This document shows, piece by piece, positions 4,440 to 59,307 of a stretch of 64,000 bases of DNA. The first letter of the stretch is position 1. Every line of letters starts with the position of its first letter. Source of the DNA: an uncultured Spirochaetota bacterium (GTDB lineage Bacteria; Spirochaetota; Brevinematia; Brevinematales; JAOACQ01); the NCBI GenBank assembly GCA_963835575.1, contig CAWIGG010000006.1, positions 352,001-416,000 of the forward strand, read 5' to 3'. Made by a program: the position numbers and the translations under genes. The notes beneath the pieces are model-generated. The model was not told where the DNA came from. It ran no database searches and saw only the letters and a program-made list of their open reading frames with translations.

Positions 4440-6761
4440 ATGCTGATGATTAAAAAAACGGCTGGACATCCTTTCCAGATAGGTCTGCAGATTCACAGCC
4501 TGTACGATTCTTTCGGAAAACTTTTTTTTGAAAACATTCATAAATGCGCGGAAGAGAAGGGGATCAATTTAATTACAGTTATCGGTGAAACCCCTCATAC
4601 GCCTTTTTATTATTATGCGCAGTTATCATCCATATATCAATATGTCAGTCCTGCCAATTTTGACGGGTTCATTTTTCTCGGTAATACCATTCTCAGTTAT
4701 GAAAGCCCGCAATATATGAAAACACTGGTGGCCGGAATGGGCAGCAAACCGGTTGTCTGCATCGGCTGCAGTGTTCTCGATAAACCAAGCATCATGACGG
4801 AAAACCGTCAGGGTATTTATGAGGCATTCAGCCATCTTGTCAAAGAGCATGGGAAAAAACATATCGCGTTTGTCAGGGGCCCGGCCGGTAATCTGGATGC
4901 GGACGAGCGTTTTGAAGCTTATTGCGAATCGCTAAGATCTTATGGTATGCCGTTCAATGAAAATATGGTTTTCCATGGCGATTTTACAAACTTAACCGGC
5001 CAGAAAGCCATTGATGATTTTAAACGAAAGGGCTTGAAAATTGACGCCATCATCACGTCCAATGATGCCCAGGCCTTCGGTCTGATTGAACAGGCGCGTC
5101 TTATCGGCATCCGGGTCCCTGCCGAGATTGCCGTAATCGGGTTTGATAATATCCGGGAATCCGAGTTTTTCTATCCTTCCCTGACTACAATCCGTCAGCC
5201 TGTTCCGGAAATGAGCGTTAAAGCTTTTGAGTGCCTGATGGATATGCTTGGCGGCAGAACCCCGCCTCAGCAGACTGTACTGCCGACAAAGCTGATAATT
5301 CGGAATTCATGCGGATGCAGGTTTCTCAATGCCGGTATTGATCCTGCATCGCCCGATGATTTAATCTTTTCCGATACGGCGGGCGATAAAACCGGCATCT
5401 TAAAAAAAAGGCTTCTCTATGATCTCTCCGGGAAAGGAACGGAAAATAATGATTGGAACGGTATTTATTCCCGTACGCTTGAATTGATAGAACTTCTGGT
5501 ATCTCAAAAAGGCATTATGGAGAAAAGGAAAGAATTTTTTGAAAAGCTTATTTATTCAATTGATGATGATATGAGGCTCAACCGGAGCATCTCCGGCTGG
5601 GAAAGTGCAATAAAAACGCTTATTCTTAACATTGATTTGTTATATGAAACCCAGGACAGCCGGAACAATATCCAGCGCATACTTAATACCGCAATGGAAT
5701 ATATCCAGATCCTGTTAAAAAATAATGAGGCCCTGAAATGGATCCGTAAGGAATACCAGATTTATGACATACGGGACAGCATACAGCGGATTGAGTCCGT
5801 GACCGATTTTAAAGAATTGTCCAGGACCAGTTTAATAATGGCTCAGAACCTGCATTACAGGCATTTTTATATCTGTCTTTATGATAAACCGCAGTATCAT
5901 GAGGCAGGGGCCCCTTTTGAAAAAGCGAAATCGGCTAAAATTCTCGCTTCGAAAACCGTATCATCAGAAAATAAAAGTCCCCGCTTCAGGAAATCCCTTT
6001 TCTCAGGAAACCAGCTTCTGCCGGTTTCAGGGTATCCTTCAAGAACCAGATACTCGCTTATCGTACAGACTGTTTATTTTAAGGAGGAAATTTTCGGTTA
6101 TATTATGTTTGAAAACCCGGAGTTTGACAAAGTGATGTTCCAGATTTTTATATCCAGTTTGAGCAGTACGCTCAAGCGTATTTTTCTTTTCAGCCAGAAG
6201 GAAAACGCGGAAAAAAGGCTCCGCGGCGCCTTGAAAAAACTGTCCTTATATAATATCAGCCTGAAGGACCAGTCGGAAAAAGATGAATTGACGGGGCTTC
6301 TGAACCGGCGCGGTTTCCTGAATATGGCAAAACTGAAACTCAAACAGCTGAAGGAAGACCGGTTGTCTGCAATTCTTTTCTTTGCTGACATGGACGGATT
6401 AAAAGCGATAAATGATTCATATGGGCATTCGAACGGAGATTTTGCCATACAATCGATGGCTGTCATCTTGAAGAAGACCTTCCGTGAAAAAGATATATTA
6501 GCCCGCCTTGGAGGGGATGAATTTGTTATACTGGCTAACGATCTTCAGAAAGAAGTTGTCAATCATATCCGAGAGCGTATGACTTATCATGAAAGTGAAC
6601 TCAACAGTCAATCCGGAAAACCCTTTAAGATCTCAGCCAGCCTGGGCCATATTATAATAAAGCCCGATTCTCATGAAAACCTGGAATACTGGATTTCCGA
6701 AGCCGATAAAAGGCTCTATACGGAAAAGAAAAAAAGAAAAATATCTGGAAGGGGTAATTGA
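4440..6761 (+). CDS. LacI-type sugar-binding domain plus GGDEF diguanylate cyclase
   Basis: IAFVRGP, VPAEIAVIGFDN, SLTTIRQP; C-terminal DELTGLLNRRGF and RLGGDEF. Confidence 0.88.
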   Translation: MLMIKKTAGHPFQIGLQIHSLYDSFGKLFFENIHKCAEEKGINLITVIGETPHTPFYYYAQLSSIYQYVSPANFDGFIFLGNTILSYESPQYMKTLVAGMGSKPVVCIGCSVLDKPSIMTENRQGIYEAFSHLVKEHGKKHIAFVRGPAGNLDADERFEAYCESLRSYGMPFNENMVFHGDFTNLTGQKAIDDFKRKGLKIDAIITSNDAQAFGLIEQARLIGIRVPAEIAVIGFDNIRESEFFYPSLTTIRQPVPEMSVKAFECLMDMLGGRTPPQQTVLPTKLIIRNSCGCRFLNAGIDPASPDDLIFSDTAGDKTGILKKRLLYDLSGKGTENNDWNGIYSRTLELIELLVSQKGIMEKRKEFFEKLIYSIDDDMRLNRSISGWESAIKTLILNIDLLYETQDSRNNIQRILNTAMEYIQILLKNNEALKWIRKEYQIYDIRDSIQRIESVTDFKELSRTSLIMAQNLHYRHFYICLYDKPQYHEAGAPFEKAKSAKILASKTVSSENKSPRFRKSLFSGNQLLPVSGYPSRTRYSLIVQTVYFKEEIFGYIMFENPEFDKVMFQIFISSLSSTLKRIFLFSQKENAEKRLRGALKKLSLYNISLKDQSEKDELTGLLNRRGFLNMAKLKLKQLKEDRLSAILFFADMDGLKAINDSYGHSNGDFAIQSMAVILKKTFREKDILARLGGDEFVILANDLQKEVVNHIRERMTYHESELNSQSGKPFKISASLGHIIIKPDSHENLEYWISEADKRLYTEKKKRKISGRGN

Positions 6762-40982: not shown

Positions 40983-42511
40983 ATGGGTTACAGATTTATG
41001 AACGATCAGGATTACTATGACATTTACAGGCGATGGAAAGTCGACCAAAGCATCAGTGAAATTTCCGAACAGGAAAGCAGGGATAGAAAGACAATCCGCC
41101 AGGCTATTCAGAAAATCATGGAGAATGGCTTTGAAAAGGATGGAGAAGCAATAAGCAGGGAAGAATTTCACCTGAAACACCCCTTTGTAGGGCCTCCAAA
41201 AAAAGCATACTTGAACGATATAAAGAGGAGCTGTACGGGCTTATAAACGATCCGAAAAATGGGATGAAACCCAAGACAGCTTTTGAAGTCGTCTGTATAA
41301 GGCATAATCTGGACATAAGCCATACAAGTTTCAAGAGATTCTCGATAAAGAGCGGCCTTACAGCAAAGGAATTAAAGGAAACCATCAGGATTGAAACGGA
41401 GCCTGGCCAGGAGATCCAACTTGATTATGGTAGGGCAGGAACACATGATCACCTGGGGCATAACAAGATTGTACAGTCTTTTATCGGAATAATGTCGAGT
41501 TCAAGGCTGACGTTTGTTCAATATGTCTTTTCACAAAATCAAGAATCATTTGTAGAAAGCAATATCGATATGCTGGAGTTTTATGGCGGTGTGCCTGTAA
41601 GAATATCCCTGGACAATCTGAAAACCGGCATCATATCACCGGACCTTTACGATCCTAAATATAATCAGGCTTATGCTGATTACACGGAGTATTACAATAC
41701 ATTTCTTGATCCATGCAGAGTAAGGAAACCAAAGGATAAAGCCAAGATAGAGAGAATGGTCCCTGTAGCCAGGGAGCTGTTCAAAAAGCTTAAAGCACTT
41801 AATCCCGGAGCTTCATTAAAGGAATTAAACATAAAAACCCTTGAATGGTGCAGGCATGAATACGGGATGAGAGACCACGGAACAACCGGCTTGAAACCAA
41901 TGGAGGTATTTGAAACGATTGAGAAGCCCCTGCTTAAGAAGCTTCCTGAAGAAAGATTTAAGACTCCCATATGGAAAAAGGCCAAGGTACACCCTGATCA
42001 GTTTGTCCAGTTCGAGAAAAAGAGGTATTCCCTGCCTCCCAGGTATCGGGGTGAGGAAGTCTTTGTCAGGAGAACCGGCAATTTAGTTAAGATTTTCTAT
42101 CAGTACAAACTCATCCGGGAATTTGTTGTGCCAAGAGGACACGCGGCATATGAGAAGACAGATTTTCCGGAGAATACAAGGGAGATGCTATCCGGAGGGT
42201 ATCCAAAGTATATTCCGGACCAATCAAGGAAATACGGAGAATCTGCGTACCAGTTGATCTTTCAAATCCTTGCTGTTCATGCTAATCTGAATTGCCGGAG
42301 GGCACTGGGATTCTTAAGTGTTATGGAAAAATTCTCGAAAGAAGGATATTTCAATAAGGTCTGTGAAAGAGCAAAATCAGCAAAGATAACCGATCCCAAA
42401 ATATTCAAATGCTGGATGGAAAATGAAGGCAAGGTTAAACAGGATAGCCTGTTTGAAATTTCAGAAGAAGGGTCTGAAATGACCAGGGACGGCAGCTATT
42501 ACTTTCAATAA
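40983..42511 (+). pseudogene. istA: IS21 transposase IstA, frameshifted near the N-terminus
   Basis: SISEIS..DRKTIR HTH; ETEPGQEIQLDYG, DNLKT, PKDKAKIE, HGTTG. Confidence 0.85.
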
Positions 42512-42967
42512 AGAAAATGAGGAGGAAATATGGAACATCAGAATCAGCTTGAGGCAAACCTGAGGAGGTTAAAACTTTCGGGGATGCTATTCAACCTTCC
42601 TATGCGTATCAGGGAAGCGCAGGAATCAAACCTGGACTATGGAGAATTCTTCTACCTGTTAGTTCAGGAGAGATAATAACATGCTCAAAAAGAGGCTGAG
42701 AGAAGCGAAGTTCGGCCAGGAAAACACTTTCGAGGGGTTTGATTTTAATTTCAATGAGAGTGCTATCCCTTCAAGACTAATCCGGGAAATCGCGTCCTGC
42801 CATGAGACAGTTTGTCGTCATCGCCGGGCCTCCCGGCATAGGTAATTATCGAAAGTTTTTGTTTATGGAAAGAAATAGACGAATATATAGATTTTAAGCC
42901 ATATTTACTTTTATTTCTTTCCATAACACCTCACAATAGATTATATAGAATAATCTTGGAGGTGCTT

Positions 42968-44215
42968 ATGAAAACAAAGATTTCCATTGGAGAACTGGTC
43001 GCTAAGGTATTAGCAGAACTTGAAAGGCTGCATTATGCTTATATCACGATTTGTGGTTTTCGTGCCTTTTACAAGCAAGTTATTATTTTTGCAAACGAAA
43101 GGAAAGAACCATATTTTTCAGAAGGACTTGGAAGAGAATTTCTGAAAGGAAAGTACAATTGTTCAATCAACTATTATACTGAAGCTATGCCTAAAAAATT
43201 CAAGAACATTATTCGAAAAATAAGGGTGTTAGGCGATTTCCAGCTTCATGGCGTAGTGATTCGAAGAATTGTAAAGAAACCAGGATATGTAAAACCACCA
43301 CAGTTCGAAAAAGCACTTAGAGACTATGAAAAAGAGTGCGAAGATAACGAATATTCAAGAAGAGGTCTGAGAACACGCACACAACGTCTTTTCTTTTTTA
43401 TCGATTATCTTGATTCTCTTGGAATTCAAAACCTAAATGATATTACAGCAGAAATCATTTCTGATTATGTCAAAACGATTTATGCCCATCATGAAAAGAG
43501 CATGGCCTCAATCCTAACAACACTGAGGGTATTTTTACGATTTCTTTACCTGAACCGGTATACTCAGGAGGACTTATTATTGAAAGTCCCCAAACAAAAG
43601 AAGTACTATTACCCTTCTATACCTTCTGTATGGAAACAGGAAGATGTGGTTCGTATGTTGGAAAATATCGATAGAGGGAATCCAACCGGCAAGAGAGATT
43701 ATGCCATCCTTCTTCTGGCTTCGCGTCTTGGAATTCGAGTAGGTGATATCAAATCCTTAAAATTGAATGAATTAAATTGGAAATCAAAAACCATAGTGAT
43801 TAAACAGAATAAAACAAAAAACATTGTAGCATACCCAATTCTGAAAGACATCGGCTGGGCATTAATTGATTATCTGCGGAATGCACGCCCTGTAAGTGAT
43901 TCGCCATTTGTATTTTTACGCATGAACGCACCTTATGAAGCATTTAGTAAGAATGCCAATCTGTATAATATCATAACAAAGCATACAAGAAACGCAGGAA
44001 TTGCTATACCCAGAGGGAAACGGCATGGTTTGCATTCTCTGCGACATACATTAGCAAGCACTTTGCTTGAACAAGGGACTCCTTTGCCTGTAATATCAGA
44101 AGTTCTAGGGCATATCAACTCTAAGTCCACAGGAGTCTACTTACAGGTAGGAATTGAAGGCTTAAAGCAATGTGCACTTGATCCTGAGGAGGTATTTAAA
44201 GATGTCTCAAGATAA
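42968..44215 (+). CDS. Tyrosine recombinase RitA
   Basis: GKRDYAI..LGIRVGDI, HSLRH, LGH..STGVY. Confidence 0.92.
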   Translation: MKTKISIGELVAKVLAELERLHYAYITICGFRAFYKQVIIFANERKEPYFSEGLGREFLKGKYNCSINYYTEAMPKKFKNIIRKIRVLGDFQLHGVVIRRIVKKPGYVKPPQFEKALRDYEKECEDNEYSRRGLRTRTQRLFFFIDYLDSLGIQNLNDITAEIISDYVKTIYAHHEKSMASILTTLRVFLRFLYLNRYTQEDLLLKVPKQKKYYYPSIPSVWKQEDVVRMLENIDRGNPTGKRDYAILLLASRLGIRVGDIKSLKLNELNWKSKTIVIKQNKTKNIVAYPILKDIGWALIDYLRNARPVSDSPFVFLRMNAPYEAFSKNANLYNIITKHTRNAGIAIPRGKRHGLHSLRHTLASTLLEQGTPLPVISEVLGHINSKSTGVYLQVGIEGLKQCALDPEEVFKDVSR

Positions 44216-45185
44216 AATTATGTTCTCCAGCAATCTCAGAGAGCTTTTAGATGGATATGTAAAAGAGCAGCGCGCAGTTGGTTACAAATACATCAAAGGG
44301 GCTGCCCTTCTTAAGCAGCTTGATAGCTATCTTGAAAGGAATCATCTGGCAGAAAAAAAGCTTTCGAAAGAAATGGTGCTTTCATGGACGGGGAAAAACC
44401 CTAATGAAACAGATAGAACAAGAATTGGGAGGATCTCAATTGCGAGAGGATTTGCAAAATATATGGTTCGTCTCGGCTATGAAGCATATATCTATCCGGC
44501 TGCGGCCGTTACAATGGAAAGATATTATTATGTTCCATATATTTTCTCAGAAAGAGAAATGCGCAGTATCTTTATTGTGAGTGATAATTATCCTGTTTCC
44601 GATATTTCGCCTAATCGTCATCTCGTCTTGCAGCTCATTATACGAATGTTATATGGATGCGGACTTAGAATCTCTGAAGCTTTAAACTTAAAACTGGATG
44701 ATGTGGATCTGGGAAAGGGAATCCTTTATATACGAGATGCTAAGTTTGGAAAGGAAAGAATGGTCCCAATGGCAGAAACATTAATGGAAAGATGCCGCCA
44801 TTATTCATATGAAGTACATAAGTACGATAAAGCTGATACTTATTTTTTCCCTTCTCCATTTGGAGGGCATTACAATGAAGCTACCATATACTGGCTTTTC
44901 AGAAATTTGCTTTGGAAAGCCGGCATTTCCCATAGTGGAAAAGGTCCAAGACTTCATGATTTGAGACATACTTTTTCAGTTCATTGTTTAAAGAAGTGGG
45001 TATTAAAGGGAGCAGATCTTGCTCAACTTCTGCCATATCTCTCAACTTATTTAGGTCATGTTGATTTAAGAGGTACACAACACTATCTAAGACTTACTGC
45101 TGATTTATATCCAACAATCATAGCATCTGTGGAAGAAAACTTTTCATTTTTAATACCGGAGGTTGAATCCCATGAAACAAACTGA
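44202..45185 (+). CDS. Tyrosine recombinase RitB
   Basis: GLRISE, KFGKER, PRLHDLRH, LSTYLGH..TQHY. Confidence 0.92.
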   Translation: MSQDKIMFSSNLRELLDGYVKEQRAVGYKYIKGAALLKQLDSYLERNHLAEKKLSKEMVLSWTGKNPNETDRTRIGRISIARGFAKYMVRLGYEAYIYPAAAVTMERYYYVPYIFSEREMRSIFIVSDNYPVSDISPNRHLVLQLIIRMLYGCGLRISEALNLKLDDVDLGKGILYIRDAKFGKERMVPMAETLMERCRHYSYEVHKYDKADTYFFPSPFGGHYNEATIYWLFRNLLWKAGISHSGKGPRLHDLRHTFSVHCLKKWVLKGADLAQLLPYLSTYLGHVDLRGTQHYLRLTADLYPTIIASVEENFSFLIPEVESHETN

Positions 45186-46194
45186 TTTAGCGAAGACACT
45201 GACCCAATATTTATCACAATATCTCCCTGGGCAGAGAAATGTCAGCACAAATACAATTATGTCATATCGGGATACATTCAAACAGTTACTGATATTCTGT
45301 GATACTGAAATGAATATCAGTCCGGAATACCTGACTCTTAGCAAGATTAAAGCAGAGACAATACAAAACTTCCTGTTTTGGCTTGAAAAATCAAAGAGGA
45401 TCTGCATTAATACACGCAACCAACGTTTGGCGGCTATTCATAGTTTTTATCGGTATGTGCAGACAGAAAATCCTGAATTCATATTTGAATGTCAGAAGAT
45501 TTTAGGTATCCCATTTAAAAAGCGCGAAATCAAAACAATTGATTATCTGCACCAGGATAGCCTAAAGGTTCTATTCGAGCAGCCAGATACAAACACACAA
45601 AAAGGACGGCGTGATTTAACAATGATGGTTCTTCTTTATGACACCGGAGCTCGTGTTCAAGAATTAATCGAATTAAAAGTAGGAGATATCCGCCTTGCGA
45701 AACCAGCTACTATACTATTAACAGGTAAAGGCAGAAAAATGAGAGCTGTTCCCATTATGGGTAAAAGCTGTGACTTATTAAAGAATTATCTGGAAGAGAA
45801 TCATTTATTGGATAACGGGAAACAGAATTATCCTCTATTCTATAATAGTAACAGGCAACCTTTCACACGGCCCGGGATAACTTATATTTTGGAGAAGAAT
45901 CTTAAAAAAGCAAAAGACCTAAACCCCAATATTCTGTTTCCTGATAAATTGAAACCTCATATGATGAGACATACGAAGGCTATTCATTTGTTAGAAGCTG
46001 GAGTTAATCTGATTTATATAAGAGATTTGCTGGGTCATGTAAATGTAAGTACAACAGAACTTTATGCCAGAACAAACTCAGAACTTAAGAGAAAAGCATT
46101 GGAATCTGCTTATATGGAAGTTGTTACGCAAGATGTTCCTGTTTGGGATGAAGATATAGATTTATTGAATTGGTTGCGGGAGTTCTGTAGATAA
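45172..46194 (+). CDS. Tyrosine recombinase RitC
   Basis: TRNQRLAAIHSF, TGARVQE, GKGRK, PHMMRH, LGH..TTELY. Confidence 0.92.
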   Translation: MKQTDLAKTLTQYLSQYLPGQRNVSTNTIMSYRDTFKQLLIFCDTEMNISPEYLTLSKIKAETIQNFLFWLEKSKRICINTRNQRLAAIHSFYRYVQTENPEFIFECQKILGIPFKKREIKTIDYLHQDSLKVLFEQPDTNTQKGRRDLTMMVLLYDTGARVQELIELKVGDIRLAKPATILLTGKGRKMRAVPIMGKSCDLLKNYLEENHLLDNGKQNYPLFYNSNRQPFTRPGITYILEKNLKKAKDLNPNILFPDKLKPHMMRHTKAIHLLEAGVNLIYIRDLLGHVNVSTTELYARTNSELKRKALESAYMEVVTQDVPVWDEDIDLLNWLREFCR

Positions 46195-46964
46195 TTATTA
46201 TGGAAAGATTTTTAGCTAATTTGATTTGATTTTATTGTTCTTAGTTTAAGATCTTTCCATAAACAAAAACTTTCGATAATTCCCCTTATGGAAAGCTTTC
46301 CATAAAGGTAAAACTCATATTTCAAAGGCAGTCGGCCATGAAGCCTGTAGGAGAGGCTATACTGTCATCTTTAAGAAAGACGCCGCTCTTTTTGAAAACT
46401 TGAAAAGTGAAAAGATTATGTTCAAAAATACTCTTTTCAGGAAGTGTATTAAAACAGACCTCCTGATCATAGACGATTTCGGATTCAAAAAACTCAACAA
46501 TGAAGAAACGGAATGCCTATACCGGATTGTCGATGAAAGGCTTGGAAACAGGTCTATTATTCTAACAAGTAACCGGCCTCTGAAGGACTGGCTGGCAATA
46601 TTCCCTGATCCTGTGGTTGGAGGGGCTATGCTTAACCGGCTTGTTTCAGGTTCGATTAAAATCCTGGTAAAATCCAAAGATGGAAAATCTTTCCGGAAAG
46701 AGGGTAAACTTATTTGAATGTTTTCGGATATTCATCTAAAATCATAAACGATGTTTTTTGGGAAAATTGACGTAATAGTTCGTAAAACAGGCTGAAATGA
46801 GTTTATAATATGAACAAGTTCGCCGTTGTAAGCAAGCCTGGCCGAAGTTGAATAATGAAATATATCCAGCCGTCCTTGGTGGGCCGGATAATAGGATAAT
46901 AAATAAAATTTACAGTTTTCTAAAATTCAATGTTATATTTTTAAAAAAAACTTGGAGTTTATAC

Positions 46965-57282: not shown

Positions 57283-59307
<2,025 letters not shown>

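Follow-up and report, generated by a model that had tools for sequence, protein, structure and literature searches.

A RIT element in Walker A codons of an IS21-type istB, with a probable second, mirror-image recombination core at one end

The RIT element of the window (the 64-kb stretch of DNA that we analysed) is a 3,466-bp insert in the Walker A Gly-Lys codons of an IS21-type istB gene, and the additional sequence at its right end is probably an intact second recombination core. Comparison of its ends with those of relatives suggests an element with two mirror-image, dif-like cores that share a 20-bp palindrome. A genome search returned a single copy of the insert in the 4.39-Mb host genome. 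A methanogen was considered as host and rejected, the genome lacking MCR_alpha.

RIT (recombinase in trio) elements are reportedly described in Ricker 2013. Assignment of the insert to this class, made in the first-pass annotation, holds: it has three tyrosine recombinase genes, inverted repeats, and a RitC related to those of other trios (by tblastn, 99% of RitC aligns at 44% identity with the third pHG1 trio gene, and other plasmid trios give 36–51%). The genes are adjacent, lie on the same strand with short overlaps, and interrupt istB as follows.

41264–42511, + strand: istA-like transposase gene of the host IS21-type element (Pfam Mu-transpos_C_2, E 5e-13), directly upstream of the istB fragments
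42781–42845, + strand: N-terminal side of the split istB, its translation ending ...VVIAGPPGIG
42956–44215, + strand: ritA, tyrosine recombinase of 419 aa (Pfam Phage_integrase 2.8e-25), aligning to XerC-like protein and XerD including HxxR, H and Y
44172–45185, + strand: ritB, tyrosine recombinase, longest ORF 337 aa with an in-frame ATG at 44220 (Pfam Phage_integrase 3.3e-25; XerC-like alignment with HxxR, H and Y)
45163–46194, + strand: ritC, tyrosine recombinase of 343 aa (Pfam Phage_integrase 5.8e-32; best solved relative XerD, E 2e-20, catalytic residues aligned)
46307–46714, + strand: C-terminal side of the split istB, GKTHISKAVG... (Pfam IstB_IS21 2.5e-31, from profile position 104)

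RitA, RitB and RitC keep the catalytic R..HxxR..H..Y set when aligned with XerD and a XerC-like protein, and the nearest solved relatives of the three proteins are XerD, XerA and a XerC-like protein. RitA gives one SAM-like match (residues 130–198); the available text of Smyshlyaev 2021 (PMC8138268) ascribes two core-binding domains to RitA of RITs and an extra C-terminal helix to RitC.

Because one istB half ends ...GPPGIG and the other starts GKTHISKAVG, the insertion lies on the Walker A Gly-Lys codons, and the AACTCAT... that follows the right junction resumes the istB reading frame. The gene has also decayed apart from the RIT insertion: its N-terminal part (42521–42845) spans three reading frames, and a related contig carries an additional 11 bases after 42801. 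Two contigs of a freshwater-sediment sequencing run cross the istB site without a RIT, with 27 and 33 letters on their shorter side; being related rather than identical istB copies, they lend weak support to the element boundaries and are not evidence of excision. Elsewhere in the window, about 11 kb from the RIT, Rfam identifies a second kind of mobile element, a group II intron (57283–59270, − strand; D1–D4 at 59040–59270, Intron_gpII domain at 57283–57434).

The ends of the element are built from two kinds of 10-bp box arranged around 6-bp spacers.

42830–42839: target bases upstream of the left junction, CTCCCG-GCAT (CTCCCGGCAT)
42840–42845, unstranded: crossover hexamer X1, AGGTAA, at the left junction, in the Walker A Gly-Lys codons and identical to 46306–46311
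42846–42855, − strand: outer box of the left end; the + strand reads TTATCGAAAG
42863–42872, − strand: inner-type box of the left end (TTATGGAAAG), 7 nt from the outer box
42917–42926, + strand: inverted inner-type box of the left end (CTTTCCATAA), 44 nt further in
46198–46207, − strand: inverted inner-type box of the right end (TTATGGAAAG)
46253–46262, + strand: inner-type box of the right end (CTTTCCATAA), 45 nt past the box at 46198–46207
46270–46279, + strand: outer box of the right end (CTTTCGATAA), 7 nt after the inner-type box
46280–46285, unstranded: spacer 1, TTCCCC (reverse complement GGGGAA), hexamer of the putative unused core
46286–46305, unstranded: perfect 20-bp palindrome, TTATGGAAAG.CTTTCCATAA, two inner-type boxes back to back
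46306–46311, unstranded: crossover hexamer X2, AGGTAA, at the right junction

All strings that the first-pass annotation quoted for the two ends were found at their positions, and its account of the layout was borne out. The palindrome lies outside the terminal inverted repeat (here 33 nt, 97% complementary, 42841–42873 with 46252–46284), the inner-type boxes form symmetric pairs at the left (42863–42872 and 42917–42926) and right (46198–46207 and 46253–46262), and the right end carries a complete box-6-box core adjoining the used junction, so that a circle junction would hold two adjacent cores joined by the palindrome. The 10-mer CTTTCSATAA occurs eight times in the 64-kb window, all eight in the RIT ends; with 0.78 expected and none of 100 shuffles reaching eight, this clustering exceeds chance. 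The box-N6-box core pattern occurs once in the window (46270–46295; 0.01 expected), and the palindrome at 46286–46305 has no other copy in the genome.

These parts can be assembled into a working model. The element would have inserted by conservative tyrosine recombination into AGGTAA, in the Walker A Gly-Lys codons of the IS21 istB gene, using a dif-like site in which a 6-bp overlap separates an outer box (CTTTCGATAA) from an inner-type box (TTATGGAAAG). We infer a free form, probably circular, in which two mirror-image cores of this kind share the 20-bp palindrome. Integration would open one core, leaving its outer box beside the N-terminal half of the target and its inner-type box, together with the whole second core, beside the C-terminal half. 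Spacer 1 would then be the overlap hexamer of the second core read on the other strand (GGGGAA), and this core could be available for insertion in the opposite orientation or be left over from one; in the window copy both cores are presumed to be active. As XerC and XerD do at dif, different Rit proteins may bind the two kinds of box, with the third then free to act on the target.

Six further members of this lineage were recovered, with RitC 79–86% identical to that of the window:

L007: a Firmicutes MAG
L010, L011, L012 and L013: metagenome contigs
L026: an end fragment in a genome of the host's phylum

At the outer-box junction, a hexamer NGGNAA falls in the Gly-Lys codons of a GxxGxGK motif in all six elements that could be read there (window, L007, L010, L011, L012 and L013). 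Among seven flank pieces searched with Pfam, six matched IstB_IS21, from four targets (window, L007, L010 and L011), and all six break at profile position 104; the L012 target matched no Pfam family. The L013 element occupies Walker A codons in a gene for a DUF6079 P-loop protein (1025–1261, − strand; Pfam 1e-32) and not in istB, and unrelated DNA replaces the upstream part of this RIT. Its location in a DUF6079 gene suggests that the lineage recognises the motif and not IS21 as such. On these junctions, the window lineage appears to home to Walker A codons, mostly of istB.

The window element, L010 and L026 have the palindrome at the RitC end, and L011 and L012 have it at the RitA end, yet it faces the C-terminal side of the target in all five close relatives with a readable palindrome junction. 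Such a combination fits a free form in which either core can be opened against an asymmetric target hexamer. These five palindrome ends all come from kin, and metagenome assemblies can err at palindromes. The RitA-side elements L011 and L012 form one clade of the RitC tree (support 92/89), so a single switch of side suffices within the lineage, and the side could be inherited instead of being reset at each move. The two junction hexamers are identical in three of four elements; in L012 they differ at position 4 (AGGTAA against AGGGAA), a single mismatch indicating that some heterology is tolerated.

Comparison of the spacers across elements bears directly on the proposal, raised in the first-pass annotation, that spacer 2 pairs with the crossover while spacer 1 simultaneously pairs with target bases −10 to −5, the two together choosing the target. 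The window does show the resemblance on which this was founded, since spacer 1 (TTCCCC) shares TCCC, and four of six positions overall, with the upstream target hexamer CTCCCG; relatives do not repeat it. In the four elements with both junctions known, identity between spacer 1 and target −10 to −5 is 4, 1, 3 and 2 of six, and the matched sum of 10 compares with a permutation mean of 9.75, 12 of the 24 permutations being equal or better; there is thus no covariation. Identity 5–10 nt upstream is 2/6 in each of three elements of other lineages (L018, L024 and L020). We also considered other offsets within the target: in L011 and L012 spacer 1 matches the crossover, on the opposite strand, better than any other part of the target, and in the window and L010 the same position shares first place at 4/6. 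Target arms resemble the boxes at 1–5 of 10 positions per arm (four elements), in agreement with the earlier observation that the target has no recognisable recombinase boxes, and this leaves room for something beyond arm recognition to help choose the target. Spacer 1, however, sits within a complete box-6-box core, as a crossover site would and a guide would not. The other supposed guide, spacer 2, is indeed identical to the crossover (AGGTAA), but after conservative site-specific recombination both junctions retain the overlap, so identity alone is no evidence of guidance. The hexamers behave as alternatives, one used at a time, and not as two guides acting jointly. We consider simultaneous pairing of both spacers extremely improbable; among the four elements, no variable segment covaried with the target outside the crossover, as DNA- or RNA-guided integration would have it, and the data so far do not support programmable DNA-guided integration.

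What spacer 1 does resemble is the crossover. Reverse-complemented, it reads GGGGAA in the window, TGGCAA in L010, CGGCAA in L011, AGGAAA in L012 and GGGAAA in L026, that is, NGGNAA in five of five and the same Gly-Lys hexamer as the crossover. Over eight elements, including those of other lineages described below, its identity to the crossover is 4, 4, 6, 5, 5, 6, 5 and 6 of six (41/48 positions). In the window and L010, spacer 1 differs from the used hexamer at both degenerate positions. Position 1 is A or C in all six used junctions and G, T, C, A and G in the reverse-complemented spacers, a departure suggesting that the spare site may be drifting and not in use.

The layout of box, spacer and palindrome recurs in three other RIT lineages that have other boxes and other targets, where reverse-complemented spacer 1 is identical to the crossover at 5–6 of six positions.

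pHG1 (L018): palindrome at the RitA end; reverse-complemented spacer 1 equal to the crossover, GCGCTA; target, Arg-Tyr codons of an integrase gene
Burkholderia RPE67 (L024): palindrome at the RitC end; ACGGTA against ACGCTA; target, R-Y codons of an integrase gene
Ruminococcus albus pRUMAL02 (L020): GAGATT at all three places
G029, a genome of the host's order (L037): RIT in a group II intron reverse-transcriptase gene; GGTGGT and GGTGGA, with spare GGTGGA

L024 and L018 are 92.7% identical in DNA. The L037 palindrome faces the N-terminal side of its target, so the facing rule is specific to each lineage, and its junction hexamers have one mismatch. In the same element (reverse complement, approximately 205–270) the junction reads GVP, TAA, GG, a stop codon standing in place of the expected Gln; the intron gene was probably dead beforehand or mutated later. 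Two plasmid RITs (L015 and L016) were unusable, one having a degenerate right end and the other being cut by the end of the record, and L022 and L039 were set aside as truncated by other insertion sequences.

Other arrangements were seen at several further loci. In a Cupriavidus oxalaticus plasmid (L040, 1495–1545), a solo 32-bp hexamer-palindrome-hexamer of the pHG1-type RIT links two integrase genes at their C-terminal tails; there are two such places in the record. In L014, L019 and L025 a RIT body separates same-side halves of two different target copies. The L019 (2150–2200 and 5590–5640) and L025 (2170–2200 and 5600–5625) elements belong to a second RIT lineage with boxes TTATGTGCAG / TTATGTGGAG, located at Walker B codons (..LLLD) of istB, and both flanks of each are N-terminal halves of different P-loop genes. 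L014, a Bacillus sp. S3 plasmid RIT (RitC 51% identical; 2640–2700 and 6080–6130), is flanked by the C-terminal halves of two oppositely oriented group II intron reverse-transcriptase genes, each cut at Gly-Gly codons, and has no palindrome. Were each core to recombine with a separate target, the solo palindrome and the same-side bodies would be the two reciprocal products; the same-side bodies could also come from homologous recombination between two copies.

On a rival, structural interpretation of the palindrome, the repeat would form a hairpin or cruciform for a linear or hairpin intermediate, or serve as an accessory binding site. The text available of Nielsen et al. 2017 (PMC5737581) reports raised RIT mobilome coverage without circle junctions and proposes hairpin intermediates from the palindromic ends, and a circle junction of the present element would itself be a long pseudo-palindrome able to extrude as a cruciform. 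We nevertheless judge a purely structural role unlikely: 6-bp target-type hexamers flank the palindrome on both sides, forming with the outer box a complete core like the used one; close relatives carry the palindrome at either end; and the solo copy of L040, which links two target tails, could arise only by strand exchange in each of its flanking hexamers. It is less probable still that the extra 26 bp are a dead scar of an earlier insertion or tandem copy with no present role. Relaxed constraint would fit the drift of spacer 1 at position 1, yet the feature is kept in five of five readable close relatives and in three other lineages with their own boxes, and the palindrome boxes are conserved among the close relatives, only the two central bases varying (GC, AT or GT).

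Searches for moving forms and further relatives were extended to several collections. Neither a circle nor an excision product nor a second copy turned up; the genome has one copy, and the public runs with related sequence consist of assembled contigs. Only two such runs contain small shares of the stretch (0.11 and 0.09), both as contigs, with no circle junction seen; one is the freshwater-sediment run mentioned above, and the other holds a relative approximately 90% alike, whose loose ends weakly suggest two more P-loop junctions. Genome contigs yielded three loci, one of them close, and metagenome contigs four. Viral contigs gave no match by pattern or by protein. The best RitC match among plasmids reached 51% identity, and a DNA search there returned two short matches only. 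Among 61 relatives of the host, RitC was found in one other genome (38% identity), and among 34 genomes of the class of G061 it was found in none but G061. The palindrome pattern, run on 401 genomes of the host's phylum, matched 10 besides the host, of which one is real (L026) and nine were dismissed as chance, with one mismatch and no neighbouring boxes. Within 20 genomes of the order of G132 the one match was G132 itself, and RitA was not found in G132.

The lineage is an example of a transposon that targets the ATPase motif in a helper gene belonging to another transposon, and its anatomy puts a 6-bp overlap on codons conserved in the genes of other mobile elements. A bolder proposal, which we advance tentatively and regard as doubtful, is that two independent overlap hexamers, one in each mirror-image core, and not protein reading of target arms, decide the motif allele and the orientation of insertion. 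Were it true, editing a hexamer would re-aim the element, and RITs would be natural dual-specificity integrases needing no target arms. The anatomy turns RIT movement into simple tests: of the circle junction, of the opening of both cores, and of hexamers against proteins in the choice of target. Because two positions of NGGNAA are free, a used spacer is distinguishable from a spare one, which makes this lineage useful for such tests.

Described RITs (Cupriavidus metallidurans CH34 and pHG1; Van Houdt 2012, PMC3414803) are alike in having three adjacent tyrosine recombinase genes, a length of approximately 3.5 kb and inverted repeats of approximately 30 bp, as given in the portions of that paper available. 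The same portions note an inverted repeat with an overlapping palindrome and leave mobility untested, and the available text of Nonaka 2023 (PMC10214605) lists RIT movement as not tested; RITs are widespread, and in the accessible text of these sources and of PMC5737581 no experiment shows how they move. Nor do the papers, PMC3414803 included, give a crossover site, a target rule or a role for the palindrome in the text available. Searches of the literature on RIT elements yielded no two-core junction and no Walker A targeting; Ricker 2013 and the supplementary tables of Van Houdt 2012 may list ends or insertion sites. The present lineage differs from the described elements in its target, Walker A codons in istB or another P-loop gene, and in a palindrome that reads as part of a second core.

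Hexamers that record an earlier site have a precedent in Tn554, Tn916 and CTnDOT, whose circular form carries approximately 6 bp of former flank (coupling sequences). Strand-biased circularizing elements (SEs) likewise carry approximately 6 bp of former flank in their circular form, according to the available text of PMC10214605. All of these multi-recombinase or tyrosine-recombinase transposons have one junction sequence, in contrast to two mirror-image cores around a palindrome.

In Cre/lox and FLP/FRT, efficient exchange needs identity of the 6–8-bp overlap, and an element-borne hexamer can in this way select its partner. Both partners in those systems have protein-binding arms, whereas the RIT target is without arms, and the RITs L012 and L037 each have one mismatch between junction hexamers. 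A further parallel is XerC/XerD at dif: XerD, XerA and XerC-like proteins are nearest to the Rit proteins, and both systems place two unlike arms around a 6-bp centre. Xer/dif resolves chromosome dimers, host XerC/XerD acting at one chromosomal dif site close to the replication terminus, whereas the window RIT is mobile, with three recombinases, two back-to-back cores and target arms unlike its own. Its sites lie at the ends of a mobile unit in an IS21 gene, served by its own three enzymes; the window RIT works like Xer/dif and is not a member of that system.
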